Assembly: GCA_037444665.1 (NCBI GenBank)
Contig: JBBILZ010000049.1
Span: 1-17,207 of the forward strand
From: a candidate division WOR-3 bacterium
GTDB lineage: Bacteria > Hydrothermota > Tepidihabitantia > SM23-42 > JAOAFX01
Direction: 5' to 3'
DNA: 17,207 nucleotides
In this document: positions 739 through 17,203 of the stretch, piece by piece
Position numbering within the stretch: the first letter of the stretch is position 1
Layout: the number at the start of each line of letters is the position of its first letter
Position numbers and translations under genes: made by a program
Notes under the pieces: generated by a model
The model's database searches: none
What the model saw: the letters and a program-made list of their open reading frames with translations, nothing else
What the model was told of the DNA's origin: nothing

Positions 739-1668
739 ATGAGTAAAAAAATGGCTAAATATATCATATTGATCTTTATTGTCGTCTGTTTTTACTGCGC
801 GCATAAAGGACCTCCTTTGTATGTAGATAGAATTGACCCTAAAATAAAAAAGGTCGCACCTATTAACAACCATCAATTAATGCTCTTTTTTTCCGAAGAC
901 CTTGATACTTTAAGTTATAACTCAGAAAACTTTATTGTCCACACAGAACACGAGACCTTAAGAATCTTTGTCGTATGTCCGGGTAATACTCCAGACCAGC
1001 TCTTCCTCACCACAGAAAAAATGAATCAGATAAAATATAAAATAACTGGTAAGGTTTTTGATAAATCAGGAAGAATGGGTACCTTTACTACTCATTTTGT
1101 CGGTTCGCCGAAACCAGATACTATTGCACCCTGGGTAACTCATTACTCAAGAGGTTACCGTTTAAAAAAATTTGATTTAGAATTCTCTGAGCCTGTAGAT
1201 ACTTTATCTTTTAAATATTATGTGATGCCCAAAAAAAAGATGCAGGCAAAATGGCAATATTTAACAAAGGTATCGTTGATACCCATAAGCGAAGTTGAGT
1301 CACTCAATTATGATACAACATATTACCTGTATGTAAAAGATATCATTGACCTGAGTGGCAATCATATTCTACATTTTGCAACCAGTATAACACCTGATAC
1401 CACATATAATCCTTTATTTATCAAAGGCAAGGCATTACTCAATGATACTAGTATCAATAACGGCATCGCCATTATTGAGCGGAATAAGATTCTGGGAATC
1501 AGCCCAGTAAAACAGGGTGAATTCTCATTTGAAGTACGAGATAGTCTCAAATATCTTGTGCATATTATTATTCCTGATTTTTATGGTGCTGATTCTGTAT
1601 CAACATCACAGATAAATGAAATAAAATTAAAGCCTGGAGCAATAGATTTTGATTCCCTTATTAATTAG
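739..1668 (+). CDS. Lipoprotein with bacterial Ig-like (Big_5-type) domains
   Basis: Basic N-terminus and hydrophobic stretch, then Cys-AHKGPP..D..P. Two Ig-like repeats carry 'FSE.(L/V)DT.S' motifs and a 'DLSGN' turn. Confidence 0.7.
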   Translation: MSKKMAKYIILIFIVVCFYCAHKGPPLYVDRIDPKIKKVAPINNHQLMLFFSEDLDTLSYNSENFIVHTEHETLRIFVVCPGNTPDQLFLTTEKMNQIKYKITGKVFDKSGRMGTFTTHFVGSPKPDTIAPWVTHYSRGYRLKKFDLEFSEPVDTLSFKYYVMPKKKMQAKWQYLTKVSLIPISEVESLNYDTTYYLYVKDIIDLSGNHILHFATSITPDTTYNPLFIKGKALLNDTSINNGIAIIERNKILGISPVKQGEFSFEVRDSLKYLVHIIIPDFYGADSVSTSQINEIKLKPGAIDFDSLIN

Positions 1669-3562
1669 TCTCTGCGCCCTAATCTTGGCCATTCTTCTTT
1701 ATCATAACAGGAAAAAACAATTATTAATTAGAATTCTAATAATTATTTTTTTATACTTATTGATAACAAATTTTTCATTAAAAATAAAAACAAAGATAAC
1801 TCCTGGTCCACCCATATTGCTCATAGATTGTTCACCAAGTTTGAAAAACTATCTTTCAGAGATAACTCAAATTAGCAGTGCACTCAATTTCAAGTATCAA
1901 AACTTTTTTTTCAGCGACACAGTCTATGATAAACAGGGTCAGATAGCAGGTAGATTTACCAATATCACAAATGCCTTAAAAACCGCGCGCGACCTCTCTC
2001 CTTCAGCAATTATATTAATCTCTGACGGAAACCATAATTCAGGCTCGTCGCCTCTGGAACTGGTGGAAAATTTTAAAGTTCCTGTCTATTGCTTTGGTGT
2101 GGGCAATACTGAATTAAAAGACCAGGCAATAGTCAATCTGTTTTATCCCCATTACGCATTTCGTAATGACACAGTATCAGTCCAGGTAAATGTTGAAGTT
2201 GGGGGTATAGAAAAAATTGGTAAAATCATTTTAAGCGGAGAGAAAATATATCTGGAAAAAACCTTTAAATTGACAAAGCCTCTGAACCGGCATTCTTTTG
2301 AATTCTATTTTGTTCCCCAAAAAGCCGGCAATAATAGATATAAAATTTCACTTACACCTCAACCTGAAGAAATGGATTATAATAATAATAATTATAATTT
2401 CTCCATTGATGTATTTGAGCGTAAAATATCGTTGCTCTACTATACGGATCACCCATCTGCCAATACCTCTTTCATCACTAACTTCTTTAAAAATAATGTG
2501 AACCTTGAATTAACACAGGCTATTCGTATCTCAGAAGATAAATTCATTACTACAGGGAGAACGGTTAATCAAAGAGACATTGATTTAACAAAATTTGATA
2601 TCATCGTTTTTGACAATATAGACGGAGCCAGAATTCAGCAACACATCAAAGAACATATAATTAATGGAAAAGGTGTATTAATTAGTGGTATTATTAGCGG
2701 CGCAAGCGAAGTATTAAATGAAATCCTTCCTTTTCGCGTGGCGGGAACTCAATTAAACAAGGAATTATCCGTAAAAGTGTTATCACCATTTTCTGTTTTT
2801 TCTCCGCAAAGAGTATACGCACCAGTTTCAAAAATTAACCTTGTTACCGGGATAAATCCCCAAACAATTCTCATTGCACAGGCAGGAGATTATCCCCTTG
2901 TCGGTTATAGGCAGATAAATCGCGGTGTGATATTTCAGATTAATATTGCGGATATTGGTCTGTGGCATTTTGCCCAGTTGAATTTGAATAATCGTGACAT
3001 TTTAAAGCCCCTACTGGAAGAACTTATTAGATTTTTATCGCCCTATGGAAGAAACCAGAGATTGATTTTAGAAACGAAAAAACGGCAATATCATATCGGA
3101 GAAAAAATTTTGCTCACCTTACAGTGTTATAATAAAAATTTTACTCCCGGGTCAGGTGGTGATTTTTATTTAGATTTCGGACATAAAAAAATCCCTTTCT
3201 TTGAAGTTAAACCCGGTTTTTATGAAATGATATTTTCTGCCGACACAGCTGGAGAATTCACTATATTCGCACAGGGTTATGTAAATGATGATACACTTAT
3301 CAGCAATAAATTAACATTTAACATAATTGGCATTCCCTCAGAGCCTGAAGAAATATTGAATGAACATTTGCTGGAAGAGATTGCCCGAAGGACAGGTGGT
3401 GATTATTATCCCCTATCCCGGCTAAAGGAATTTCAACCACCACCACCAATTGAATATTACGAAACAAAAAGCATTCAATTTGACCAGCCAATTCTGTATA
3501 TCTTAATTTGTTGTCTGCTTATACTGGACTGGCTTATTAGAAAAAAAAGAGGAGAGATATGA
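1649..3562 (+). CDS. Membrane-anchored vWA-domain protein with Ig-like/CARDB and GATase-like domains
   Basis: Two N-terminal TM helices, vWA MIDAS-like LLIDCSPS, TNI..AL and IILISDGNHN. 'E.DYNNN' Ig-like motif, C-terminal 'LEEIARRTGGDY' and a final TM helix ending DWLIRKKRG. The TTG start overlaps the upstream gene and is uncertain. Confidence 0.7.
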   Translation: MIPLLISLCALILAILLYHNRKKQLLIRILIIIFLYLLITNFSLKIKTKITPGPPILLIDCSPSLKNYLSEITQISSALNFKYQNFFFSDTVYDKQGQIAGRFTNITNALKTARDLSPSAIILISDGNHNSGSSPLELVENFKVPVYCFGVGNTELKDQAIVNLFYPHYAFRNDTVSVQVNVEVGGIEKIGKIILSGEKIYLEKTFKLTKPLNRHSFEFYFVPQKAGNNRYKISLTPQPEEMDYNNNNYNFSIDVFERKISLLYYTDHPSANTSFITNFFKNNVNLELTQAIRISEDKFITTGRTVNQRDIDLTKFDIIVFDNIDGARIQQHIKEHIINGKGVLISGIISGASEVLNEILPFRVAGTQLNKELSVKVLSPFSVFSPQRVYAPVSKINLVTGINPQTILIAQAGDYPLVGYRQINRGVIFQINIADIGLWHFAQLNLNNRDILKPLLEELIRFLSPYGRNQRLILETKKRQYHIGEKILLTLQCYNKNFTPGSGGDFYLDFGHKKIPFFEVKPGFYEMIFSADTAGEFTIFAQGYVNDDTLISNKLTFNIIGIPSEPEEILNEHLLEEIARRTGGDYYPLSRLKEFQPPPPIEYYETKSIQFDQPILYILICCLLILDWLIRKKRGEI

Positions 3563-5602: not shown

Positions 5603-6879
5603 TTTACAACTCCTCTCAAATATTTTTTTACTCTTGTGCCATGGCCATGTCGTGCCCTTACTGTAATCCTGAATTCATACTCTCCAGGCGGCACCACCTG
5701 ACCATCGCTATTCATACCATCCCAGACAATAAGAACTTCACCAGGGGGCCTTTTTAAACCATCTATTAAAGAAATTAATTTATTTCCTGATTGATTATAA
5801 ATATCAATATCTATTCGTGCCTCATCAGTGACATATAGTGCTAGTGTTGTACCTGGCTGGCGCGCAGAAAATACTGATGGAAAACAACCAACAAAAATTG
5901 CATCAATCGCAATCCAGAGGTACTGTCCACCCTCTTTTTCTGTAATAAAAACCTGACCATATCGCCTACCAATCGCAATCCCTCTTGGTGAATGGAATTC
6001 ACCTTTATCAGTTCCTGTTCTACCTTCAGATATTATGTAACTTAAATTCCGGTCAAATTTATGTATCTGGTCATTCTTGTCATCGGTAACATAAATATTA
6101 CCAAAATAATCTACTGCACAATATAGAAAATTTGCATCCGCAAGTCCAATTTCAAAACTATAAATTGAATTTAAGAATCTACCTGAAGTTGCAAACCGTG
6201 AAACCCTCTGTCCTTCGTTATCCACTACTACAATAAAATCATCATGGTAGTAGTTATTTCCTGCTTCCGCATCAATTACTTCAATTCCAAGTGGCTGGTA
6301 AATTTCACCATAAGACCTGCCCTCCCTTCCAAATGACCTCAAGAGTGAATCCTGTGGTGAATAAACATATATCTTGGAATTATCATAATCTGTGATATAA
6401 AGATTATTCTTTGAATCAAAACAAACATCAAATGGCTTACCCGGTAATTTTATCTCACTGACATATTCAAGCTTTCCTTTAGTATATTGTAATTTGACAA
6501 CTCGCCTGTTTCCGAAATCAGCGAGGGCAATCAAACCATCTTCATTTATTGTTATACCTTTGGGTTGAGAAAACATTTTATCATTACCATAGACCTTTAC
6601 CTCAGCCAGTCCAATATTATACACAATCTGCCCCCTTCCTGAATTTACTGCAAATACTGAAAGTTCATCATCATCTTTCTTTGTTTTAGGGTCATCCAGC
6701 TCCTTTAATTTAACGGCAGCAATGCCCTGGGGGTCATCATAATCAAAATTGGGTCCAATAAATAATCGTAAATAATATTTAGATGCCCGATAAAAACCAA
6801 AGGTATGCTCAAACGGTGGCACAGCCAGAGTTTGAGGCTGATATTGACTTATTAGAAAGAATATTAAATTGAGCACCAT
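5587..6879 (-). CDS. NHL-repeat beta-propeller protein with C-terminal FlgD Ig-like domain
   Basis: Repeats F..P.GI.....G.I.V.D.GN.RV and G.F..P.GI. The C-terminus IYNQSG....L....PG.....WDG.N..G..VPPG.Y is FlgD_ig-like. The start is more likely ATG 6879 or GTG 6876 than 6903, because a consensus promoter overlaps 6883-6910. Confidence 0.8.
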   Translation of the reverse strand: MVLNLIFFLISQYQPQTLAVPPFEHTFGFYRASKYYLRLFIGPNFDYDDPQGIAAVKLKELDDPKTKKDDDELSVFAVNSGRGQIVYNIGLAEVKVYGNDKMFSQPKGITINEDGLIALADFGNRRVVKLQYTKGKLEYVSEIKLPGKPFDVCFDSKNNLYITDYDNSKIYVYSPQDSLLRSFGREGRSYGEIYQPLGIEVIDAEAGNNYYHDDFIVVVDNEGQRVSRFATSGRFLNSIYSFEIGLADANFLYCAVDYFGNIYVTDDKNDQIHKFDRNLSYIISEGRTGTDKGEFHSPRGIAIGRRYGQVFITEKEGGQYLWIAIDAIFVGCFPSVFSARQPGTTLALYVTDEARIDIDIYNQSGNKLISLIDGLKRPPGEVLIVWDGMNSDGQVVPPGEYEFRITVRARHGHGTRVKKYLRGVVKCVAS

Positions 6880-6882
6880 ATA

Positions 6883-6910
6883 ATTATAAGTATTTTTACT
6901 CATTTGTCAA
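6883..6910 (-). promoter_or_regulatory. Sigma70 promoter for the NHL-PorV-kinase operon
   Basis: Minus strand TTGACA (6910-6905), 16 nt spacer, TATAAT (6888-6883), then an in-frame GTG 6 nt later. Confidence 0.75.
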
Positions 6911-6932
6911 TGGTAAATGGAAATAAAAACTG

Positions 6933-6960
6933 TTGACATAATAGCAAAAATTTATAAAAT
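6933..6960 (+). promoter_or_regulatory. Sigma70 promoter facing the diguanylate cyclase
   Basis: TTGACA (6933-6938), 16 nt spacer, TAAAAT (6955-6960), back-to-back with the divergent promoter. Confidence 0.65.
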
Positions 6961-6965
6961 ATTAT

Positions 6966-7133
6966 GTGCAAAATTTAGTTATATTTAATTTTTCAAAGGA
7001 ATTAACACTCAGACATAAATTCCATCTTCCTATCCTGCTTATAACCAAGAAAGTTCTAATGCATTCCATTACAAAACCTCCTGAAAATTATAAAGAATCC
7101 TTCAGTATCAACGATAAATTATTTTCTGATTAG
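6966..7133 (+). CDS. Possible leaderless small ORF (55 aa, MQNLVIFNFSKELTLRHKFHLPILL...DKLFSD)
   Basis: GTG 5 nt after the -10 box. The frame is open for 55 codons in AT-rich DNA and stops 6 nt before the DGC start. No recognisable homology. Confidence 0.3.
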   Translation: MQNLVIFNFSKELTLRHKFHLPILLITKKVLMHSITKPPENYKESFSINDKLFSD

Positions 7134-7139
7134 GATAAA

Positions 7140-9098
7140 ATGAAGTTCTTTTACATACTCGCTATTATTTACACACTAATTGCTGCTCGTGGTATATTTC
7201 AGTTCAATGTCAATACAAAATTAGGATATTTTTTACTCGGTATATTAATGTTATACTACATTTTTTACATATTAAAAAAGAAAATCCAATTTTATCATAC
7301 AGTTATTGCCGGAATATTTATTAATATTTTAGTCCAATTAACAGGCGGATTAAAATCTCCATTCTTTGTCTTTTATTTTCCGGTTTTACCCATTATTGGT
7401 TTCCGCGAGCACCAGAATAATTATTGGTTCTGCGCCGCTGCCATTGTTCTTATAGAATTAATTTCCAGCATTTTTAAACATCATTTTAATATACTCCCAC
7501 TGCTATGCCTCGCAGTGGCAATTATCATCACGGGCATCATTATCAATAAGATATCTCAGCGTGAAGACCGATTAAAAAAATCATTAGCCCGTTACGAAGC
7601 ACGGGATTATTTCTTTGGACCGGCTGATTTTGAAAGTAAAAATCTTATTACTTCAATTAAGGATATTGATAGACATCCGGGTATTGAAAGGCCATTGCTC
7701 TATTACATAAAGTTCATTCACAACATTTTTAATTGTCATACCACTGCCATCTTTTCTTATAATGAAGATAAACTTGTTCTTGTGCAGGGTTTTTCACGCT
7801 CCGAATTATTTAAACCTGATACAGTTTTAAATGTGGAGCGTGGATTATACCGCCAGGTTATTATGGAAAAAAAAACAGTGCTCATAAAAGAGTTTGTCCA
7901 GAGTTCTGATGAACTCGGTTTTTATAGAGGAGATGTCATCCTTTCATCTGTGATTATTGCACCAATCGTTATAATTGACCGTGTGGAAGGGATTTTTGTT
8001 ATTGACCGTAAAGAGAATCATTTTACTGAAGAGGACAAAACAAATTTTGACGAAGCAGCAAAAGGTGCAGGATTTCTGATTGCTATGCTCAGGTTATATG
8101 AAAAAGAAAGGTATGAATCTCAGTATTTATCTTCAATTGCCGAACTTGCACGCAGATTACAGCGTGGCCTTGAATTGAAAGCAATTGTTAATGATACAGT
8201 TAAATCATTTCGCTCTGTTTTAAATTGTGATGACCTATCAATTGCGGCAATTGATGAACTGAATAACCAGGGCACAATTATTGAATCTACTTATTTAAAA
8301 GAAAACATAAAATTCAGTTTGGATGAAGGACTTGTGGGGCTTGTGGTCAGGCATCAGAATTATATTATGAAGGAAGATATGAGTGAAGGCAATTTAATTG
8401 TTTTTAAAAAAGGAGAAAAGAAAAATCGTGGTTCCTTTCTTGGCGTTCCAGTAAAAGGTGACCACGAAGTTTTAGGTGTAATATGGCTTGAAGACCACCG
8501 TCGTAAAAGATTTGGTGACGAGGATATTGAAGCACTCAACATCCTTTCATCACAGCTAACACTTGCCTGGCAGAGGGCAATTCTCTATGAAAGGGTTAAA
8601 GAACTATCAATAAGAGATGGTTTGACTGGACTATACAATCACCGGCATTTTCAGGAAATTCTGGAACAGGAACTAAAAAAACAGCGAGAATTGATTTTAT
8701 TATTATTTGATATTGATTTTTTCAAAAAAATAAATGATACTTATGGACACCAAGCAGGTGATGAAGTTTTGAAATTCATTGGTAGGCTCATATCACAAAC
8801 TGGCATTTCTGGAAGGTATGGGGGCGAAGAATTTGCAATAATTCTACCTAACTGCAGTTTGAAAAAGAGTGCTGAAATTGCTGTCCGTTTAAAGGACCAC
8901 ATCAATAAGTCTGAAATACAGTTCAATCAACATAAAATAAAATTCACTATAAGCATTGGTATTGCCCATTATCCAAAGGATGCAAAAAATCGGGTTGAAT
9001 TAATAGAGCAGGCAGACCGCGCCCTTTATTCAGCAAAAGAAACTGGACGGAATAAAATTGTGATTGCCAAATCCCTGACTCCAGAACAAACATCGTAG
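7140..9098 (+). CDS. Membrane-bound diguanylate cyclase with two GAF domains
   Basis: About 5-6 N-terminal TM helices and two GAF domains (F...D...L motifs). GGDEF domain with DGLTGLYN, DIDFFKKINDTYGHQAGD, RYGGEEF, TISIG and ADRALYSAKETGRN. Confidence 0.93.
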   Translation: MKFFYILAIIYTLIAARGIFQFNVNTKLGYFLLGILMLYYIFYILKKKIQFYHTVIAGIFINILVQLTGGLKSPFFVFYFPVLPIIGFREHQNNYWFCAAAIVLIELISSIFKHHFNILPLLCLAVAIIITGIIINKISQREDRLKKSLARYEARDYFFGPADFESKNLITSIKDIDRHPGIERPLLYYIKFIHNIFNCHTTAIFSYNEDKLVLVQGFSRSELFKPDTVLNVERGLYRQVIMEKKTVLIKEFVQSSDELGFYRGDVILSSVIIAPIVIIDRVEGIFVIDRKENHFTEEDKTNFDEAAKGAGFLIAMLRLYEKERYESQYLSSIAELARRLQRGLELKAIVNDTVKSFRSVLNCDDLSIAAIDELNNQGTIIESTYLKENIKFSLDEGLVGLVVRHQNYIMKEDMSEGNLIVFKKGEKKNRGSFLGVPVKGDHEVLGVIWLEDHRRKRFGDEDIEALNILSSQLTLAWQRAILYERVKELSIRDGLTGLYNHRHFQEILEQELKKQRELILLLFDIDFFKKINDTYGHQAGDEVLKFIGRLISQTGISGRYGGEEFAIILPNCSLKKSAEIAVRLKDHINKSEIQFNQHKIKFTISIGIAHYPKDAKNRVELIEQADRALYSAKETGRNKIVIAKSLTPEQTS

Positions 9099-9164
9099 TT
9101 TACAATCTGTATCACTATCCATTTTTACTTTCCTAAATTTACTAATACCCTGCAAGTTGCATTA

Positions 9165-9260
9165 TTAAAAAACTGCCCCGGAATTCAGTTTGGTAGAAAT
9201 GTGGTAAAAATATCTTTAAAAATCATAAACAAAAAATCACTTCAACAATTAAATAATTAA
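9165..9260 (+). pseudogene. Vestigial HD-GYP C-terminal tail
   Basis: Translates LKNCPGIQFGRNVVKISLKIINKKSLQQLNN*, which aligns with LKSLSGIQFDRNVVKTFLKIIEENSSFKHLNN of the HD-GYP fragment at 16822-16932. Confidence 0.75.
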
Positions 9261-9369
9261 ACAATTGTTTAACTATTTAAACGTCCATTAAAGTATTTTT
9301 TAAAAATTTTCTTGTGGTTCAGTTTTGAAATATGCTACTAGCCAGGAATGTTTATACAGAACATACATC

Positions 9370-9405
9370 AATACGGCAATACGACAATTGTCGTATTGCC
9401 GTATT
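9370..9405. repeat. Perfect 36-bp palindrome
   Basis: AATACGGCAATACGACAA|TTGTCGTATTGCCGTATT, with no loop. Confidence 0.95.
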
Positions 9406-9446
9406 CTCAAATTGGGTTAGTTGAAAATAAAATTCAGAAAATATCT

Positions 9447-9503
9447 GTAGCGTTCGGCTTCAGCCGGACGAAAACGAATCGTCCATTTAAAAATGGACGC
9501 TAC
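9447..9503. repeat. GTAG-type REP doublet (REPIN-like)
   Basis: GTAG-CGTTCGGCT-TC-AGCCGGACG (9447-9470), a 9 nt spacer, and an inverted GTAG-CGTCCATTT-TT-AAATGGACG (9503-9480, minus strand). Confidence 0.7.
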
Positions 9504-9539
9504 AACCTCCTCTGAACATAAGACTATTACACTATACAA

Positions 9540-11777
9540 CTATCCACCCATCAAACCATCTAACAATTTCTGTATCTCCTCTGAATCCGGAATTATCTTC
9601 AGGACGTTTTGCAAAACCCTTCTGGCATCGGTTTTATTCCTATGCTCAAGGCAGCTTTTGGCAAAGTTTACTGCCTCGGTCTCAAGTTGAGACAAAATCT
9701 TAAATCGCATATTCACTGACCAATCATCAAAATTCTTCTTAAATGGCTCACCACGGAATAATCTAAATGCCCGCAAATACTCTTTTTTTGCAAATCCCCA
9801 TTCTCCTGCCCGCTCAAGTGCCTTTGCTTGTGCTAATGTTTGCTCAAATTCCTGTAAGTCCGTGGTAAAATAGATTCCTTCGTTTATTAAAACTGGCTCT
9901 CCATAACCCCAAGACACAATCAACAAATGGGTAGGTATCTTTAATGCCTTTTTAATTCTCACTAAAAGATGCGAAAAATTGCGGGATGCTGTTTCGCTTC
10001 CAGGCCAGAAATTCTTATAGACCTCCTCTAAATTTATCGCCTTTTTCGGCTCCATTGCCTTCTGGCTGAGATAGATTAAGAACGCAGCATCCTTTGGCCT
10101 CAATCTTACCTTTAAGTATTTTTGGTTCTTGTGGACCGCGAAATGTCCGAGAAGTTTGAGATTATATATCAGTGTTTTTTTATTAAATACCGGGAATCTT
10201 AATAAGCTTTTTGGTAGTCCCGTTGCTATGCCTTTTTCAATCAGGAGTTGTATTATTTCTGGGAATAGAATAGAAACACGATGTAGAATTCCCAGCAGTC
10301 CCGCCTTTTCGGCATATTTGTAGGCTTTTTTGTAATCACTTGTTTTCAAGGATAAACTGCTCTTTTTCAGTAAAAAAAGGAGATAGTTCTGGTGTATCTG
10401 CTTTATGTCTTCAGAAACTTTTGGATTGTTTATGATAGTTTCATATAAGAGCAAATCTTTCTTATTACCATATCTTTTGAGTAATGGTAAATATCTCTTT
10501 AATAAAATTATGGCCTTGTTTCTTTGACCCTGAGCAGAGTGGATAACTGCAAGAAAGAATGTTGCGAAACCCCAATAAATTCTGAGTTCCATTTTTTTTA
10601 CGATCTCTAAGAATAATTGCATCTGATTCATTGCCTTGAAGATATCTCCTTTTTGCACTAAAAAATACTGGGCTCTTTGAAGAACATACGAAGGATTTGT
10701 TTTTTCTTCTTTGTTTTTTAATCGCTGCATAAGAGTATTATATTTTTCATATTCCCCCTGGGTGATATACAATCGCGATTTTAAGAATAGTACATCATCC
10801 TCGTTAAATTTATTTTCATACACTTTCAGGATGCGATCGAACTTTTGGAAATAACCAAGATTATCACAAAAAATAAGAAAGTTTCGAACAAAGTTAGAAG
10901 TAGGATACTTTTTGATTAGATACTCACATTTTCGCAACAAATCTACCGCTTTTTGGACCTCAAGACTTCTTGCATAGGCAATGCCTTTAATACAATAGAT
11001 AGAGAACCTCACAGCAGGGTCTAAATTTTCCTCCGGACAAAGCTTCCTCATATGCCCCAATAAGACAAGCTCCCTTTTAATTTTACCGCTTCCAGCATAG
11101 CAAAGAGCCTCCAGAAGCCCTGTTCTAATTGCTGAATACACATATCCTCTACTTTCAAAATTCCTCCGTAGTTTCATTAATTTTTGTGATAGGAGATTAT
11201 ATGGAATTTTGCCAAAAAGGGAGTAGTATTTTTCCAGCCTTCGGCAAGGGGCAAGAAACTTATCCGGAATATTCGTCAAAATCTCATTTTTTGGACAAGA
11301 GGGCATCTCATTTAAGATCTTCCCGGCTTTTTGGAGATTATTCAATTCCACATATCTCCGTGCCTCTTCTAAAACATATTTTGCTTCGGGTGTCCCAGAG
11401 ATATAATCTGCAAACTCCAAAGAATAACTTTCTTTTTTTAAAGCGACATACCCATATCTCGACCAGACTCTCCATACTCCTTTGATAGAAATTTCTATAC
11501 CTTGTTTTTCAAGAATTTCTTTTGCCTTTCTGACTGTTAAGGCAGGTTCCCTTTCCTTAAGAAGAGCAATTCTTTCTTCTAATTCTCCTTCTGTTCTGCT
11601 TCGTGGCCTGGTATATATCCCAAGTAGACGCCTTTCACCTTCTTCCTTATACGCCTTTACCCATTTAAATACAGTTCGGTAGTTTACATGAAATTTTGAG
11701 GCGGTCTGCATCAATGTGGTATTATTCTTTAAATAATATTGAACAATAGCGAGACGAGTTTCTGGTCTTATGTACAT
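9540..11777 (-). CDS. Transcriptional regulator: transposase-like N-terminal HTH, TPR-like helical region, SARP-type winged HTH + partial BTAD
   Basis: The N-terminus TASKFHVNYRTVFKWVKAYKEEG...RP.SRT..ELEERI..L.E..P......L...GI.IS...VWRVW resembles IS481/IS630-type DNA-binding regions, with no DDE domain. The C-terminus L.LLG.F.V, FWP......N....L.RIKK.L, DL.EFE, A..L.RGEPF...DDW is SARP/BTAD-like. Start moved to ATG 11777 because of the promoter position. Confidence 0.75.
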   Translation of the reverse strand: MYIRPETRLAIVQYYLKNNTTLMQTASKFHVNYRTVFKWVKAYKEEGERRLLGIYTRPRSRTEGELEERIALLKEREPALTVRKAKEILEKQGIEISIKGVWRVWSRYGYVALKKESYSLEFADYISGTPEAKYVLEEARRYVELNNLQKAGKILNEMPSCPKNEILTNIPDKFLAPCRRLEKYYSLFGKIPYNLLSQKLMKLRRNFESRGYVYSAIRTGLLEALCYAGSGKIKRELVLLGHMRKLCPEENLDPAVRFSIYCIKGIAYARSLEVQKAVDLLRKCEYLIKKYPTSNFVRNFLIFCDNLGYFQKFDRILKVYENKFNEDDVLFLKSRLYITQGEYEKYNTLMQRLKNKEEKTNPSYVLQRAQYFLVQKGDIFKAMNQMQLFLEIVKKMELRIYWGFATFFLAVIHSAQGQRNKAIILLKRYLPLLKRYGNKKDLLLYETIINNPKVSEDIKQIHQNYLLFLLKKSSLSLKTSDYKKAYKYAEKAGLLGILHRVSILFPEIIQLLIEKGIATGLPKSLLRFPVFNKKTLIYNLKLLGHFAVHKNQKYLKVRLRPKDAAFLIYLSQKAMEPKKAINLEEVYKNFWPGSETASRNFSHLLVRIKKALKIPTHLLIVSWGYGEPVLINEGIYFTTDLQEFEQTLAQAKALERAGEWGFAKKEYLRAFRLFRGEPFKKNFDDWSVNMRFKILSQLETEAVNFAKSCLEHRNKTDARRVLQNVLKIIPDSEEIQKLLDGLMGG

Positions 11778-11787
11778 ATATGGAAAC

Positions 11788-11816
11788 ATTATACAAAATT
11801 TTATATGGTTTGTCAA
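11788..11816 (-). promoter_or_regulatory. Perfect-consensus sigma70 promoter of the regulator
   Basis: Minus strand TTGACA (11816-11811), 17 nt spacer, TATAAT (11793-11788). ATG at 11777 has no SD. Confidence 0.85.
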
Positions 11817-11929
11817 GAACGAAATTGGCTGCTTAAAAATGCCGTAATATCAACAATTTTCTCGCATCCCCCAGTAAAAAGCAGACATAGTTTTTATTAT
11901 ATCATTATATGAAAGGGGGTGCTATTATT

Positions 11930-13540
11930 ATGGGGAAAAATTTGACAGCTATTATGTTAAGTGCGTTTTGTCTGTTGCTCAATGCCCAGGTTCCTCTGGA
12001 GACGACTCCTTTCTGGATGTCAAATATAACTGCTGATACACGTGAAATCACGTTTGCTGATATTGATAGTGACGGCGACTTAGATATGGCGGTCAGTACC
12101 GAAGTTCCAAACGTGAATTCGACACATATCTATCTCAACCTTGGCAGTAGTCTTGAGTATTTCCCTTCAATGATACTGCCCACCGCAGGCTCTATGGGCA
12201 TAGCATTTGGTGATGTAGATAATGACGGAGATCCTGATGTTGCAGTCGGATACTCTATGTCCCTTTCCGGACAACCTGTGAAACTTTTCAAGAATAACGG
12301 CGGTATCTTTGATACGATCCCGGCCTGGACAGGTACTACCGGAGCATTATGGTGTGGATGGGGGGATGTTGACGGGGATGGTGACTTGGATCTTGCGACA
12401 GTTGACATATTGAGTGACGCAGCGGTCTACCTGAACAATAATGGAATTTTGGAATCAAGCCCATCTTGGCGTGCAGCCGACGGTTATCAATGGGATATAG
12501 TGGGCACCTGGTTTGATGTGGATGACGATGGTGACTTAGACTTGGCGATTGGGTTAGATTGCAGAATATATTTAAATAACAATGGTATTTTAGAAACCAT
12601 TGCCTCATGGCATCCGGATATATCTATTTTTAATAGTGCAGGGTTAACCGCTGGTGATATTAATCATGATAATCTACTTGACCTTGCAGTTGGCTGTGGG
12701 GCAAGTGGTAGTCATGCACCCAATCTTTTGTACTTTAATTCAGAATCTGGACTTGAAAGAACACCATCATGGCTCTCCGGAGATAGTTCTATGACCTGGC
12801 GTGTTGCTCTTGGCGATGTCAATGCAGATGGGTATCTGGACTTAGCGGCCGCTAATTTTATGGGTGCTGATGTTGTGTATTTGAACACCGGTGGAATTTT
12901 AGAAATAAACCCTTCCTGGAGTTCCGATGAATTAGAAGATAGTTATGGCATTGCCTGGGTTGATTTGGATAACGATGGTTTAGTGAATAGGATCGATACC
13001 CTAACTGGAGACGGGATACGAAGATTGTTTTACTTTTCACATGTTCCTATTCATAAGTTATACAGAGTATCTGTCGGCGGGGCGCCGTTACCCCTATCTG
13101 ATTATTGCCTTGACCCATTCGCCGGTTGGATTTCTTTAAAGGAAGCACCAGCAAATGGTAGTGAAATTTTCATACAATATTCTTACTCAATAGACATGGA
13201 ACTGGTGGTGGGAAGTCCATCTCCAGCGGCTTATCGGAATTCTATGATAGGTATTGAAGAAAAGACAAAAACCCCATGTCCAATATCATTGTTCAGAATT
13301 ACGCCTACCGTTTTAAAAAAAGGTTCTAATATTTCATTCATCTTGAATAGATCAATAATAGATGGAGATTTGTCTTTGTACGACATACTGGGCAAAGAGA
13401 TTAGCCACAAACATATAGGAACGATGCACATTGGCTTACATACTTGGACTGAAACAAATAAATTAGTTCCAGGAATTTACTTCCTGGCTATTAGCGTTAA
13501 TGGCGAACTTGAGGTTAAAAAGTTCCTTATTTGTGAATAA
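11930..13540 (+). CDS. Secreted FG-GAP/VCBS repeat beta-propeller protein with T9SS-type C-terminal sorting domain
   Basis: SD AAAGGGGGTG before ATG 11930 and a signal peptide ending LNA|Q. Seven D.D.DGD.DLAV repeats and a C-terminal GIEE...LYDILGK...PGIYF..KK motif. Confidence 0.85.
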   Translation: MGKNLTAIMLSAFCLLLNAQVPLETTPFWMSNITADTREITFADIDSDGDLDMAVSTEVPNVNSTHIYLNLGSSLEYFPSMILPTAGSMGIAFGDVDNDGDPDVAVGYSMSLSGQPVKLFKNNGGIFDTIPAWTGTTGALWCGWGDVDGDGDLDLATVDILSDAAVYLNNNGILESSPSWRAADGYQWDIVGTWFDVDDDGDLDLAIGLDCRIYLNNNGILETIASWHPDISIFNSAGLTAGDINHDNLLDLAVGCGASGSHAPNLLYFNSESGLERTPSWLSGDSSMTWRVALGDVNADGYLDLAAANFMGADVVYLNTGGILEINPSWSSDELEDSYGIAWVDLDNDGLVNRIDTLTGDGIRRLFYFSHVPIHKLYRVSVGGAPLPLSDYCLDPFAGWISLKEAPANGSEIFIQYSYSIDMELVVGSPSPAAYRNSMIGIEEKTKTPCPISLFRITPTVLKKGSNISFILNRSIIDGDLSLYDILGKEISHKHIGTMHIGLHTWTETNKLVPGIYFLAISVNGELEVKKFLICE

Positions 13541-13559
13541 CTTTTGAGGAGGTGTAAAA

Positions 13560-16214
13560 ATGAAAAAAATATTAATTTTTTGTGTACTGATGTGCAATCT
13601 TTTAGTTAATGCAGAAGAGCAGGTAAAAATGATTGAAAAGATTAAAGAAACAATAAAAATGGAAGTTTGTCCAGACGAAAATTATCTAGCCAAAATGCTC
13701 CTTCATTCACCAGAACAACCCAATCTTTCACCATTTACCCTGACTGAATTCTTAATTGATACAGCAATAATTCAACAACAGCTTCACGGCGGGCGCAATC
13801 CGGCTATTGCTTTTGATGGCACAAATTTTATGGCTGTTTGGAGGCAAGTTACCGTAGCCTATTCGGGATTATATGGCGTGAGAATTTCCTCCGAAGGCTC
13901 TATTATTGGTGATGTCTTTCGTATATCTACCATAGCACCAATTGACCAACCTGATATTATTTTTGATGGCACAAATTATTTTGTGGTATGGACCGGCAAT
14001 TATAATTGTGTCTATGGAGCGCGGATTAAACCTGATGGGACTGTGATTGATACAAATGGATTCTTAATTGCAACTAACAATTCTATTGCATATACCCCTG
14101 CGGTTGATTATGGTGTGGGCAGATATCTTGTAGTGTGGGAGGTGACTGCTGGGAATTTTGATGCCTATGCGGCTCTTGTTGATACGAACGGAACAGTTCT
14201 ACTCAATTTCCCGCTTGAAAATGATCCGGTTCTTGTTGGAGCCTTGCCGGATGTCTCTTTTAATGATACGGATACTATGTTTTTAACAGTATGGTACGGA
14301 ACCTACGTATTTGGGAGCAGAATTTTGCCCGACGGCACAAACCTGGACCCAGGTGGATTTAGAATAAGTAATCAAGGCTCCGTCTTATATCCAAGGGTAG
14401 ATTTTGATGGCACGAACTGGTATGTCGTCTGGTCATGGCTACTGAATGACTTTTCTGGAGCATGGGTGAGCCCTGATGGGATTCCATTCCACGAATTTAA
14501 CCATATGCCAGGTAGTTGGAGCATGTGGGTGCCGGCACTAGTGGTCGGAGATTCTGTTCACTGGTTACAGGCATTTAATGGAGGCGGAGCCAACCCCCCA
14601 GTGGATATCTATATTACTCGCATAGATTTTCGCGGAAATGTCATTGATACCCCCTGGATTCCTGTTGATACTTCTCCGGGCTGGCAAGCGTGGGGAAAAA
14701 ATACCTATGGCGACAGCACCTTTATCGCAATCTGGGAAGACCAAACAACCTGGGATATCTACGCCAGGCGGTATGCACCTGATGGAAGTCCTAAAGATTC
14801 AACGAGATTTCCTGTAAATCTATTCACTAACAACCAGAATTATCCTGGGGTCGCTTTTGACGGAACTAATTTTCTTGTAGTATATGAGGATACAAGAACA
14901 GGGAGTGGCGATATATATGGTGTAAGGATTACGCAGGATGGAATTATTATTGACCCTGTTGGATTTTTAATTTGTCAGAATGTTGGGAGTCAGTATTGGC
15001 CAAGGGTTGCATTTGGTGATTCCCTATACCTTGTAGTCTGGATATCAGATTCAGCTGTCTATGGTGCAAGAGTCTTACCAGATGGAACAATTCTCGATCC
15101 AAATGGGTTCCAAATTACCCCTACTAATAGCAGTATGCCTTCTGTTTCATATAACAATGGTGTTTTTCTTGTTGTATATAACCATGATTACAACGGCAGT
15201 GGCGTCTTCGGAATTTGGGCAACAAGGGTATCTCCTAATGGCACTGTGCTCGACCCATCTGGTGTTGAGATAGAACCCGTCCCAGGTATTAATCAACAGT
15301 TATGGTGGCCTGAGATTGCACCTCATAAAGATGGATTTTTTGTTACCTGGAATTACAGCGCTTATCCAGGAGATAGTTCAAGGATTGATGGTGCGATTGT
15401 TCAGGCTGATACTGGCTCAATAAATCCTGGTCCTACAATTCGTATCTCAACACCGGGGTTAGGTTATGATCCAGAAAATAGATGGCATGGAATAGCAGGA
15501 ACCCCAGAAAATACTTTTCTCGTCGTATGGGGGAAGAACTATAATCAAATTTACGGCACCCTTTTAGATTCTTCTGGAACAGTTCTTTCTCAGATACCAA
15601 TATGCACAGTCCAACCGAATATTGTGGAACAGCCGTCAGTTGTATTCAATGGGAAGGACTTTGTAGTTGTGTGGCAAGATTCGCGTCAGACGGCATGGCA
15701 ATACGACCTATATGGTGCCCGAGTATCGCCCAATGGAGTAGTCTTAGACACTAATGGTATTGAATTTGTGAATAGCGAATACTCAAGATTTTATGTAGAA
15801 CTTGCTTCAGCAACTCCGGATCCAGATACTGGTGCTAAAGTATTACTTGTATTTAATGGTTATGTCAGTGAACCGTACAATGGAAATCGGGCACTAGGCG
15901 CCATCTATCATCCACCAACCGGCATTAAAGAAAGTTATATTCAAAAAATTCCAACCGAGCACAGGATTACCATTTCACCAAACATATCGTATCAAAAACC
16001 TTATGTCTTGAGCTATTCGTTTCCTCGTCAAACTGAGATTAATGTGAATGTCTATGATATTACTGGACGGTTGGTGAAGAATGTCTATAACGGCGATATC
16101 AAAGAAACAGGCGAGATAAAATTTAGTTTACAAGAAATGCCTCAGGGTATCTATTTTGTCCGGGTGAAAACAGAGAATAAAATAAAGACAATGAAAATCA
16201 TTTGGCTTAAATGA
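13560..16214 (+). CDS. Secreted repeat (double beta-propeller-like) protein with T9SS-type C-terminal sorting domain
   Basis: GAGGAGGTG RBS and signal peptide. About 14 repeats of P.VAFDGTNFLVVW...IYGARV.PDGTVLD..GF.I. C-terminal GIKE..ISPN..VYDITGRLVK..QGIYFVRV..KII motif. Confidence 0.85.
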   Translation: MKKILIFCVLMCNLLVNAEEQVKMIEKIKETIKMEVCPDENYLAKMLLHSPEQPNLSPFTLTEFLIDTAIIQQQLHGGRNPAIAFDGTNFMAVWRQVTVAYSGLYGVRISSEGSIIGDVFRISTIAPIDQPDIIFDGTNYFVVWTGNYNCVYGARIKPDGTVIDTNGFLIATNNSIAYTPAVDYGVGRYLVVWEVTAGNFDAYAALVDTNGTVLLNFPLENDPVLVGALPDVSFNDTDTMFLTVWYGTYVFGSRILPDGTNLDPGGFRISNQGSVLYPRVDFDGTNWYVVWSWLLNDFSGAWVSPDGIPFHEFNHMPGSWSMWVPALVVGDSVHWLQAFNGGGANPPVDIYITRIDFRGNVIDTPWIPVDTSPGWQAWGKNTYGDSTFIAIWEDQTTWDIYARRYAPDGSPKDSTRFPVNLFTNNQNYPGVAFDGTNFLVVYEDTRTGSGDIYGVRITQDGIIIDPVGFLICQNVGSQYWPRVAFGDSLYLVVWISDSAVYGARVLPDGTILDPNGFQITPTNSSMPSVSYNNGVFLVVYNHDYNGSGVFGIWATRVSPNGTVLDPSGVEIEPVPGINQQLWWPEIAPHKDGFFVTWNYSAYPGDSSRIDGAIVQADTGSINPGPTIRISTPGLGYDPENRWHGIAGTPENTFLVVWGKNYNQIYGTLLDSSGTVLSQIPICTVQPNIVEQPSVVFNGKDFVVVWQDSRQTAWQYDLYGARVSPNGVVLDTNGIEFVNSEYSRFYVELASATPDPDTGAKVLLVFNGYVSEPYNGNRALGAIYHPPTGIKESYIQKIPTEHRITISPNISYQKPYVLSYSFPRQTEINVNVYDITGRLVKNVYNGDIKETGEIKFSLQEMPQGIYFVRVKTENKIKTMKIIWLK

Positions 16215-16336: not shown

Positions 16337-16512
16337 ATGGATAAAATTAATTTTGATCGCTTACCAAAGGAGGCCTTTTGGAGCATCTTTATCTGGATGT
16401 GTTAATCGCCTGTTTAAAAGAGATTGTTAGGGCGTTGAAAAATGAGCCTGAGAAGGCACTGGTTGATTTGCGGGAGATTGGTAAGACACTTGATAGTATT
16501 GTGGTATCCTAA
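16337..16512 (+). pseudogene. Frameshifted ORF remnant, possibly the N-terminus of the broken HD-GYP gene
   Basis: ATG 16337 gives MDKINFDRLPKEAF. One frameshift at the TTTT run (~16376-16379) continues as LEHLYLDVLIACLKEIVRALKNEPEKALVDLREIGKTLDSIVVS*. Confidence 0.35.
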
Positions 16513-16590
16513 ATTCCAATTTTTTAAAGATTATTTGGATTTTGGGTTATTGTGATTTTTTCGGATTTAGAAATTCGGATTTCGGATTTA
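16506..16590. repeat. Degenerate 7-mer tandem/inverted repeat (TTCGGAT type)
   Basis: TTCGGAT TTAGAAA TTCGGAT TTCGGAT at 16560-16587, preceded by TTTGGAT TTTGGGT and a complementary remnant ATCCTAAATTCCAA at 16506-16519. Confidence 0.65.
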
Positions 16591-16932
16591 TCCGAGTTAT
16601 GGGGTTATCATATCCTATCAGGTTTTACTGATATTCCTGAGATTTTGAATGGTGTTAAAACCCATCATGAGTTCTATGACGGCTCGGGCTATCCTGAAGG
16701 CTTAGAAGATGGTGAGATTCCTTTGATTGGCAGAATCCTTGCGGTTGCTGATGCCTATGATGCGATGACCTCAAAAAGACCTTATCGCAAGGTTAAAACA
16801 AAAAAAGAGGCGATTGAGGAATTAAAAAGCCTTTCCGGGATTCAATTTGATAGGAATGTAGTAAAAACATTTTTGAAAATCATAGAAGAAAATAGTTCAT
16901 TTAAACACTTAAACAATTGTTTAATTATTTAA
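16591..16932 (+). pseudogene. HD-GYP c-di-GMP phosphodiesterase, C-terminal half only
   Basis: HHEFYDGSGYPEGL..EIPL.GRILAVADAYDAMTSKRPYR..GIQFD is present. The HD (HDIGK) motif and N-terminal half are missing, and the upstream 'ORF' sequence is just the 7-mer repeat. Confidence 0.85.
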
Positions 16933-17203
16933 CTGTTTAAATGTTCATTAAAGTATTTTTTAAGAGTTTTCATGCGGTTCAGTTTTGCAATATGATGCCA
17001 ACAGGAATGTTTATACAGAACATACATCAATACGGCAATACGACAATTGTCGTATTGCCGTATTCTCAAATTGGGTTAGTTGAAAATAAAATTCAGAAAA
17101 TATCTATAGCGTTCGGCTTCAGCCGGACGAAAACGAATCGTCCATTTGAAAATGGACGCTACAACCTTCCCTGACCATAAGACCATCAGACTATACAACT
17201 ATC
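16822..17203 (+). repeat. Direct repeat copy 2 (partner 9165-9544)
   Basis: Contains the identical 36-bp palindrome (17029-17064) and the REP doublet (17106-17162). Confidence 0.95.

Follow-up and report, generated by a model that had tools for sequence, protein, structure and literature searches.

The SARPs are the textbook activators of antibiotic clusters, and the canonical members bind DNA as two protomers on two or three direct repeats in tandem, across the -35 region. According to PMC10972967, all described SARP classes carry the SARP unit at the N-terminus, and the group is called exclusive to actinobacteria. For AfsR, PMC10936776 assigns the 22-bp afs box to positions -40 to -19, of which the downstream protomer occupies -29 to -19, describes a poor -35 element that is bypassed, and gives the BTA domain as residues 120-270, with seven helices, the last two of which contact sigma region 4 and alpha-CTD. 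Here we describe a protein from a candidate division WOR-3 bacterium that carries such a unit at its opposite end. The window that we analyzed is a whole contig of 17.2 kb (C49; JBBILZ010000049.1, 17,207 nt) from a genome (G000; GCA_037444665.1) of 2.54 Mb in 120 contigs; four other contigs of this genome, C7, C18, C21 and C73, bear paralogs, and L-numbers denote compared loci. An open reading frame (ORF) is present at 9540..11816 on the minus strand, and the starts of homologs identify the ATG at 11777 as the start of a 745-amino-acid (aa) protein. Three parts can be distinguished in this chain: a transposase-type helix-turn-helix (HTH) region (residues 1-107), a tetratricopeptide repeat (TPR) solenoid (122-526) and a SARP unit (536-745). 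We consider it fairly probable that the protein is a one-component, signal-responsive transcription activator of the divergent operon, which encodes secreted (type IX) proteins.

The structure of the protein was predicted with AlphaFold2 from 93 full-length family members (predicted local distance difference test score, pLDDT, 94.6; predicted template modelling score, pTM, 0.87), and the folds were compared by a VIA-align run on Foldseek candidates. The modelled C-terminus begins with beta strands (residues 536-555), continues with helices (561-612) and a wing (619-639) and ends in five helices (640-744). As in the SARPs AfsR, ActII-ORF4, RedD, DnrI and EmbR of M. tuberculosis, an OmpR-type winged helix is thus packed on a helical BTAD, with Z scores of 16-18: residues 535-745 superpose on the SARP domain of AfsR (8k60_J, Z 17.7, root-mean-square deviation 3.1 over 199 residues; 8hvr_I, Z 17.3) and on EmbR (2ff4_A, Z 16.5; 2fez, Z 15.9). 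These alignments end at about chain residue 225, short of residue 270 where the BTA domain of AfsR ends, indicating that the BTAD is shortened here and is without its last two helices. The Pfam BTAD model scored 22.1 bits on the isolated C-terminus, equal to its cut-off, over model positions 1-98 of 146, and was hit at E<=0.1 in 6 of 11 family members (best 3.4e-5). None of five C-terminal segments matched the Pfam model Trans_reg_C at E<=10, so the winged-helix assignment rests on the fold; likewise, sequence searches of the PDB, with the single protein or with a family profile, returned TPR proteins and no SARP, and fold comparison was therefore required to recognize the unit. Among 24 family members, the recognition helix of the winged helix (consensus SRNLSHLLVRIKKAL) hardly varies. 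Unlike in the described SARPs, where it stands first in the chain, either by itself or ahead of NB-ARC/TPR, the unit occupies the C-terminal end of the chain, behind an HTH region and a TPR solenoid; unlike AfsR, the protein has five BTAD helices rather than seven, and no NB-ARC/NOD ATPase was found in it.

The N-terminal head resembles the end-binding regions of IS481, IS630 and IS3 transposases, Tc3, Mos1, TnsB and Pax proteins, all of which have two three-helix bundles joined by a linker. Residues 4-105 match the Pfam families HTH_28 (5e-10), HTH_32 (4e-8) and HTH_23 (1.6e-7), each above its curated cut-off. In NCBIfam, the IS481 model is matched at positions 2-112 of 284 (E 1e-13; 51.4 bits against a cut-off of 224) and the IS630 model at positions 2-121 of 299 (E 2.6e-12; 46.8 bits against 100), and the same scan found no match to the DDE catalytic parts of either model anywhere in the protein. 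In the AlphaFold2 model, residues 5-46 and 64-107 form the two bundles. The first 135 residues were also modelled separately (pLDDT 88). With both bundles aligned, the best fold matches include the paired domains of Pax5 and Pax6 (Z 7.5), TnsB of the type V-K CRISPR-associated transposon (Z 7.2) and the bipartite domain of Tc3 (Z 7.0), with CENP-B and IstA also among them; a Foldseek search with the N-terminal model gave nothing at E<=0.001 (best 3.7e-3). Unlike the IS481 and IS630 transposases, the protein has no DDE domain and no terminal inverted repeats, and its scores are far below the family cut-offs; because the DDE domain is missing, it is not a transposase. It is reasonable to suppose, with the first-pass annotation, that this head may be a domesticated transposase domain.

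The middle of the protein, residues 122-526, contains no beta strand in the model and no P-loop or ATPase family in Pfam or NCBIfam. The family-profile search of the PDB matched the TPRs of kinesin light chain and LapB. Among solenoid folds, domain III of MalT (Z 18.6), the Rap, NprR and AimR receptors (Z 16-17) and subunits of the anaphase-promoting complex were matched, although fold matches between helical repeats are unspecific. The order of the parts recalls two known designs. As in MalT, an effector DNA-binding domain follows a TPR/SUPR-like sensor solenoid, and as in the RRNPP quorum-sensing receptors (NprR, Rap, AimR), whose TPR takes up a secreted oligopeptide, an HTH precedes the TPR. 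Unlike MalT and other STAND proteins, however, the regulator has no NOD ATPase, and is thus not a STAND protein, and its C-terminal DNA-binding domain is of the SARP rather than the LuxR type; unlike the RRNPP receptors, its HTH is of the transposase and not the XRE type. Judged from fold, position and conservation, the protein would work most like a SARP, yet it fails the architectural definition of one. The first-pass annotation of this DNA, made from the letters and their translations, had proposed this arrangement: a transposase-like region of about 110 aa without a DDE domain, a helical TPR-like middle without a P-loop, and a C-terminal SARP winged helix with a shortened BTAD. Profiles and modelled folds bear it out in each part, including the presence of two DNA-binding folds in a single chain without an ATPase, and its boundary for the C-terminal unit, 10166, was accurate, being residue 538.

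A word-indexed search returned 10 relatives, one of them carrying the source label 'DNA-binding SARP family transcriptional activator/transposase' and others labelled WOR-3. With an exhaustive profile search at E<=1e-30 the family grew to 181 cluster representatives, and roughly 100 of these span the whole 743-position profile and are 700-800 aa long; among divergent members with poorly matched N-termini, the transposase-type HTH families were kept in 5 of 7 scanned. Of 151 genomes sampled from the phylum, 15 had 1-7 copies; they belong to 10 of the 76 genera and are concentrated in four families. G000 has five full-length paralogs and one C-terminal fragment. The nearest ESM Atlas clusters, at 0.87-0.89, are BTAD/TPR proteins of other phyla and serve as leads only. 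In the literature we found no description of the HTH-TPR-SARP architecture or of regulators of type IX secretion system (T9SS) cargo in these phyla. Over 93 members, the fraction of the majority residue is 0.5-0.6 in the termini versus 0.27-0.42 in the TPR part. The contrast is sharper between paralogs within a genome: in two other genomes (with the closely related pair L014/L017 excluded), identity is 52-86% over residues 510-710 but 10-36% over the TPR part, and in G000 the C-terminal 212 aa are 81, 84, 64 and 48% identical and the N-terminal 120 aa 38-50%. The first-pass annotation had suggested checking for conserved termini and a hypervariable middle; the former is true, but the latter is overstated, as the middle is divergent (10-35% identity between paralogs) yet alignable. 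On sequence grounds, a conserved SARP unit combined with a divergent TPR part fits a common output, with the same box and the same contacts to RNA polymerase (RNAP), and paralog-specific sensing.

The genomic setting of the family was compared in 29 foreign loci, with labels including WOR-3/Stahlbacteria, TA06, Cloacimonadota and Gemmatimonadota. Where an upstream ORF was called (25 loci), the nearest one lies on the opposite strand in 23; the exceptions are L012, in which the intergenic region is overlapped by a same-strand ORF of 104 aa, and L027, for which just 790 nt were available. A T9SS-type C-terminal domain is encoded by the first divergent gene in 17 of 24 scorable foreign loci (Por_Secre_tail in 13, FlgD_ig only in 4), and with the second divergent gene counted the number rises to 18 of 24. 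All four testable paralogs of G000 (window, C7, C18 and C21) face a divergent operon that contains a Por_Secre_tail gene, the C73 paralog lying at a contig end. In the window, the 3' end of the FG-GAP gene shows in addition a weak Por_Secre_tail match (13331-13531, E 2.8e-4). A conserved position divergent to T9SS cargo, as the first-pass annotation had anticipated, is thus upheld. Locus L023 has two family genes (905-3160 and 5986-8250) on the same strand, 2.8 kb apart with one cargo gene between them, which indicates that local tandem arrays of regulator-cargo units exist in other genomes too.

Upstream of the regulator gene lies a fixed control region of ~130 bp that is shared across the family and includes the divergent promoter; it is new here. 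From 27 divergent intergenic regions, each trimmed of its first 45 nt, a Gibbs sampler returned a 26-nt motif, AAAAnGAGACACAAT-N6-TATAA, with an information content (IC) of 15.5 bits, compared with 9.1-9.5 bits in ten shuffled sets. The motif starts 99-113 nt from the regulator ATG in 21 of the 27 loci, irrespective of the distance to the divergent start codon, which ranges from 2 to 423 nt. By regular expression, the box core was found in 25 of 29 loci, and in 24 of these 25 exactly 6 nt separate it from the -10. These promoters have little resemblance to a -35 element (best match, mean 3.08/6), in contrast to the regulators' own promoters (5.64/6). With the -10 hexamers set at -12 to -7, the box would extend from about -33 to -19; like the afs box of AfsR, it covers part of the -35/spacer region, and the -35 of the promoter is poor. 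The two most deviant winged-helix recognition helices, those of C21 and L024, pair with the two most deviant boxes, a suggestive coincidence of sequences given the small numbers. Across the genome, the strict box with a -10 occurs at 12 sites versus 3-5 in shuffles, and looser patterns are not enriched; just one of the 12 is at a paralog, so the box is not a general promoter element of cargo genes.

The other end of the control region is marked by the regulators' own promoters, in which, at 25 of 31 family loci, TTTCY stands 0-3 nt past the -10, versus 26 of 1767 (1.5%) promoter-like sites across G000. The perfect consensus of the window's regulator promoter is in itself not special, because the 2.54 Mb of G000 hold 242 perfect TTGACA-N16-18-TATAAT sites; what is specific to the family is the sequence past the -10. 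Unlike Bacteroidota, this organism seems to rely on canonical sigma-70 promoters. As the ATG follows only 10 nt past the -10, the regulator mRNA would have a leader of about 4 nt.

Based on these results, we propose that the C-terminal SARP unit, winged helix and short BTAD together, binds the conserved box and, by analogy with AfsR, replaces -35 recognition through contact with RNAP ('sigma adaptation'). The divergent TPR solenoid would sense a paralog-specific ligand, probably a peptide or protein, that gates this activity. The N-terminal HTH would bind a second site in the 130-bp region, most likely TATAAT-GTTTCC-ATG at the promoter and 5' end of the regulator, which could result in autoregulation much as IS transposases act at their terminal repeats. 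Several observations weigh against this proposal. Both DNA-binding heads are conserved, and the assignment of the box to one of them is tentative; the fold matches of the N-terminal head are middling (Z <8) and meaningful only alongside the sequence profiles. Positions in the promoters depend on transcription start sites inferred from the -10 hexamers, and the window's own box is degenerate (GACATAGT, 11884-11891) with a weak -10. No tandem direct repeat is evident in the aligned boxes and flanks, which distinguishes the family's box from the sites of canonical SARPs. Since the BTAD is without the two helices that reach sigma region 4 and alpha-CTD in AfsR, the contacts to RNAP may differ. Finally, 6 of the 24 foreign loci (L013, L019, L026, L035, L037 and L038) have no recognizable T9SS domain in the first two divergent genes, although four of them encode beta-propeller repeats, and because G000 has about 98 Por_Secre_tail matches as a base rate and cargo genes are common on the downstream side of the regulators too, cargo-rich islands account for part of the association.

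Some of these points would suit a different division of labour, in which the N-terminal HTH is the main sequence reader and the SARP unit is chiefly a module for RNAP contact and activation, or the reader of a second, less conserved site between the two promoters. Bipartite domains of the paired/Tc3 type cover sites of this kind, with the linker in the minor groove: the conserved block has no direct repeat and forms one asymmetric site, ~15 nt long and containing an A-tract; moreover, the recognition helix of HTH2 is as invariant as that of the winged helix. We nevertheless regard this arrangement as unlikely, for the box, standing in the place of the -35 and 6 nt from the -10, matches the site of the downstream AfsR protomer, and the SARP unit is the best conserved part between paralogs (56-86% identity, versus 10-35% for the TPR part). 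A second motif between the two promoters (AAGGGT-like), moreover, is marginal, with an IC of 6.6 versus 5.7-6.2 in shuffled sequences, barely above controls, and we make no claim for it. Less likely again, the protein would repress the divergent pair or have a dual effect on it, for example by promoter occlusion until the ligand brings release. The appeal of this reading is that the box lies inside the core promoter, where a bound protein can block RNAP, that the BTAD is truncated, and that PMC10972967 mentions one SARP, Atr32, whose effect is negative. But target promoters without a -35, in an organism with so many perfect consensus promoters, are typical of activator dependence, and both the SARP fold and the position of the box match the activation mechanism described in PMC10936776.

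The family shows the SARP unit in uncultured, non-actinobacterial phyla of sediment and subsurface, at the opposite end of the protein, fused to a transposase-type head and paired with genes for secreted surface proteins and proteases, its probable targets instead of antibiotic clusters. The box and the fixed promoter geometry provide a testable model of local switching of T9SS cargo, for which we found no published regulator, and bear on the question of -35 recognition being replaced by just one SARP unit whose BTAD is shortened. Since the paralogs combine divergent sensors with output domains that are nearly identical, the family may be a natural set of modular switches with orthogonal inputs. 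We further speculate, without rating it likely, that the regulator derives from a domesticated IS481/IS630-like element whose N-terminal domain still reads a relic of the terminal repeat, the relic now carrying the promoter TATAAT-GTTTCC-ATG, and whose core was replaced by a sensor and a lone-protomer SARP unit. Were this true, two unrelated heads would act on one 130-bp region, one in autoregulation and the other in 'sigma adaptation' by a lone protomer; this would be a new way of building an activator, and the proteins would be the first dedicated T9SS cargo regulators outside Bacteroidota.

The regulator gene is followed by a repeat that the first-pass annotation had considered, with its palindromes, as a possible conserved target; the comparison speaks against such a role. 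Further copies lie at C21:1-329, at C73:2519-2713 (after the paralog) and at C18:19856-20312 (after the fragment), with a partial copy after the C7 paralog. The copies are 87-99% identical, and this DNA is much better conserved than the genes that precede it. The end of the window and the start of C21 are 98.8% identical over 329 nt, and C49 therefore probably continues into C21 and the next paralog. Short copies of the GTAG+hairpin units contained in the repeat also occur on C18, C53, C61, C70, C94 and C104. The free-standing fragment at C18:19522-19731, which encodes the last 71 regulator residues at 74% identity and is followed by the repeat, is a leftover of recombination between paralogs. 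Over the last 75-175 codons (9543-10067 in the window), third-codon identity between the G000 paralogs is 57-79%, compared with 20-50% elsewhere; the break points differ by paralog, C7 and C18 having theirs near aa 522-571 and C21 and C73 near aa 669. At paralog 3' ends in other genomes this identity stays modest. The repeat was found only in G000, and at 11 of 21 foreign loci fewer than 100 nt separate the regulator from the next ORF downstream. The rise in third-codon identity and the restriction to one genome indicate that the repeat marks recent gene conversion and is not a conserved operator. We accordingly see it as REP-like (repetitive extragenic palindromic) intergenic DNA, along which homology would allow gene conversion to homogenize the SARP-coding 3' ends of the five paralogs. 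Public DNA contigs from four runs are fragmented and piled up over 9228-10083, and none spans 9372-10010, which is consistent with a repeat and is not a measure of copy number. That repeat, regulator, cargo operon and repeat form a mobile or recombining cassette, whose transposase-like head recognizes the repeat or its palindromes, is very improbable: direct 380-bp repeats do bracket a 7.6-kb unit, follow four to five paralogs, contain a 36-nt perfect palindrome and accompany a C-terminal gene fragment (C18:19522-20312), but the protein is without a catalytic domain, related genomes lack the repeat, its REP-like pieces are present elsewhere in G000, the right-hand copy can be explained most simply as 3' flanking DNA of the next paralog, and raised third-codon identity reflects gene conversion, not transposition.

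Table 1. Positions of the regulator, its parts and neighbouring features in the window.
Feature	Position	Strand	Details and basis
Regulator gene	9540..11777	-	745 aa plus stop codon 9540-9542; 100% match to protein cluster P0002
Bipartite transposase-type HTH, residues 1-107	11457..11777	-	HTH1 helices 5-46, HTH2 helices 64-107; Pfam, NCBIfam, model
All-helical TPR-like solenoid, residues 122-526	10200..11414	-	Presumed sensor; model, profile and fold matches
OmpR-type winged helix, residues 536-639	9861..10172	-	Recognition helix 597-612; fold only
Shortened BTAD, residues 640-745	9543..9860	-	Five helices; Pfam BTAD and fold
Regulator's own promoter	11788..11816	-	TTGACA-17 nt-TATAAT, then GTTTCC; 12/12 consensus matches; ATG 10 nt past -10
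Divergent-operon promoter	11877..11903	+	Box AAAAGCAGACATAGT (11877-11891), 6 nt, -10-like TATATC (11898-11903); no -35 consensus
Divergent operon	11909..16214	+	FG-GAP repeat protein (11909-13540); 884-aa protein with T9SS C-terminal sorting domain (13560-16214); Pfam
Repeat of ~380 bp	9164-9544		Starts right after regulator stop codon; second copy 16821-17198, 87% identical
Perfect palindrome of 36 nt	9370-9405		Four AATACGRC units; within repeat; AT-rich palindromes also present
Two inverted GTAG+hairpin REP-like units	9447-9470; 9480-9503	+; -	Resemble a bacterial interspersed mosaic element; within repeat
GAF-GGDEF diguanylate cyclase gene	7140-9098		Convergent with regulator

Smaller observations concern the neighbouring genes. 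An Rfam scan of the window matched no family. The listed ATG of the FG-GAP gene (11909) is only 5 nt past the predicted -10, and an in-frame ATG at 11930 follows AAAGGGGG (11912-11919); the latter is more likely to be the start. A HEPN/nucleotidyltransferase pair of the toxin-antitoxin type lies directly downstream of the C18 paralog (L008 10780-11465, corresponding to C18:18779-19464 of G000). Genes for signalling of the cyclic di-GMP type (GAF-GGDEF and HD-type) flank regulator-cargo units, and the divergent operon of L036 also holds an HD_5 gene. The window also has an HD_5 gene copy (16378-16896), whose intact counterpart of 219 aa lies at C7:4449-5108. The two are 81-93% identical, but the copy has 93 nt in place of residues 50-117 and is therefore probably a decayed paralog.

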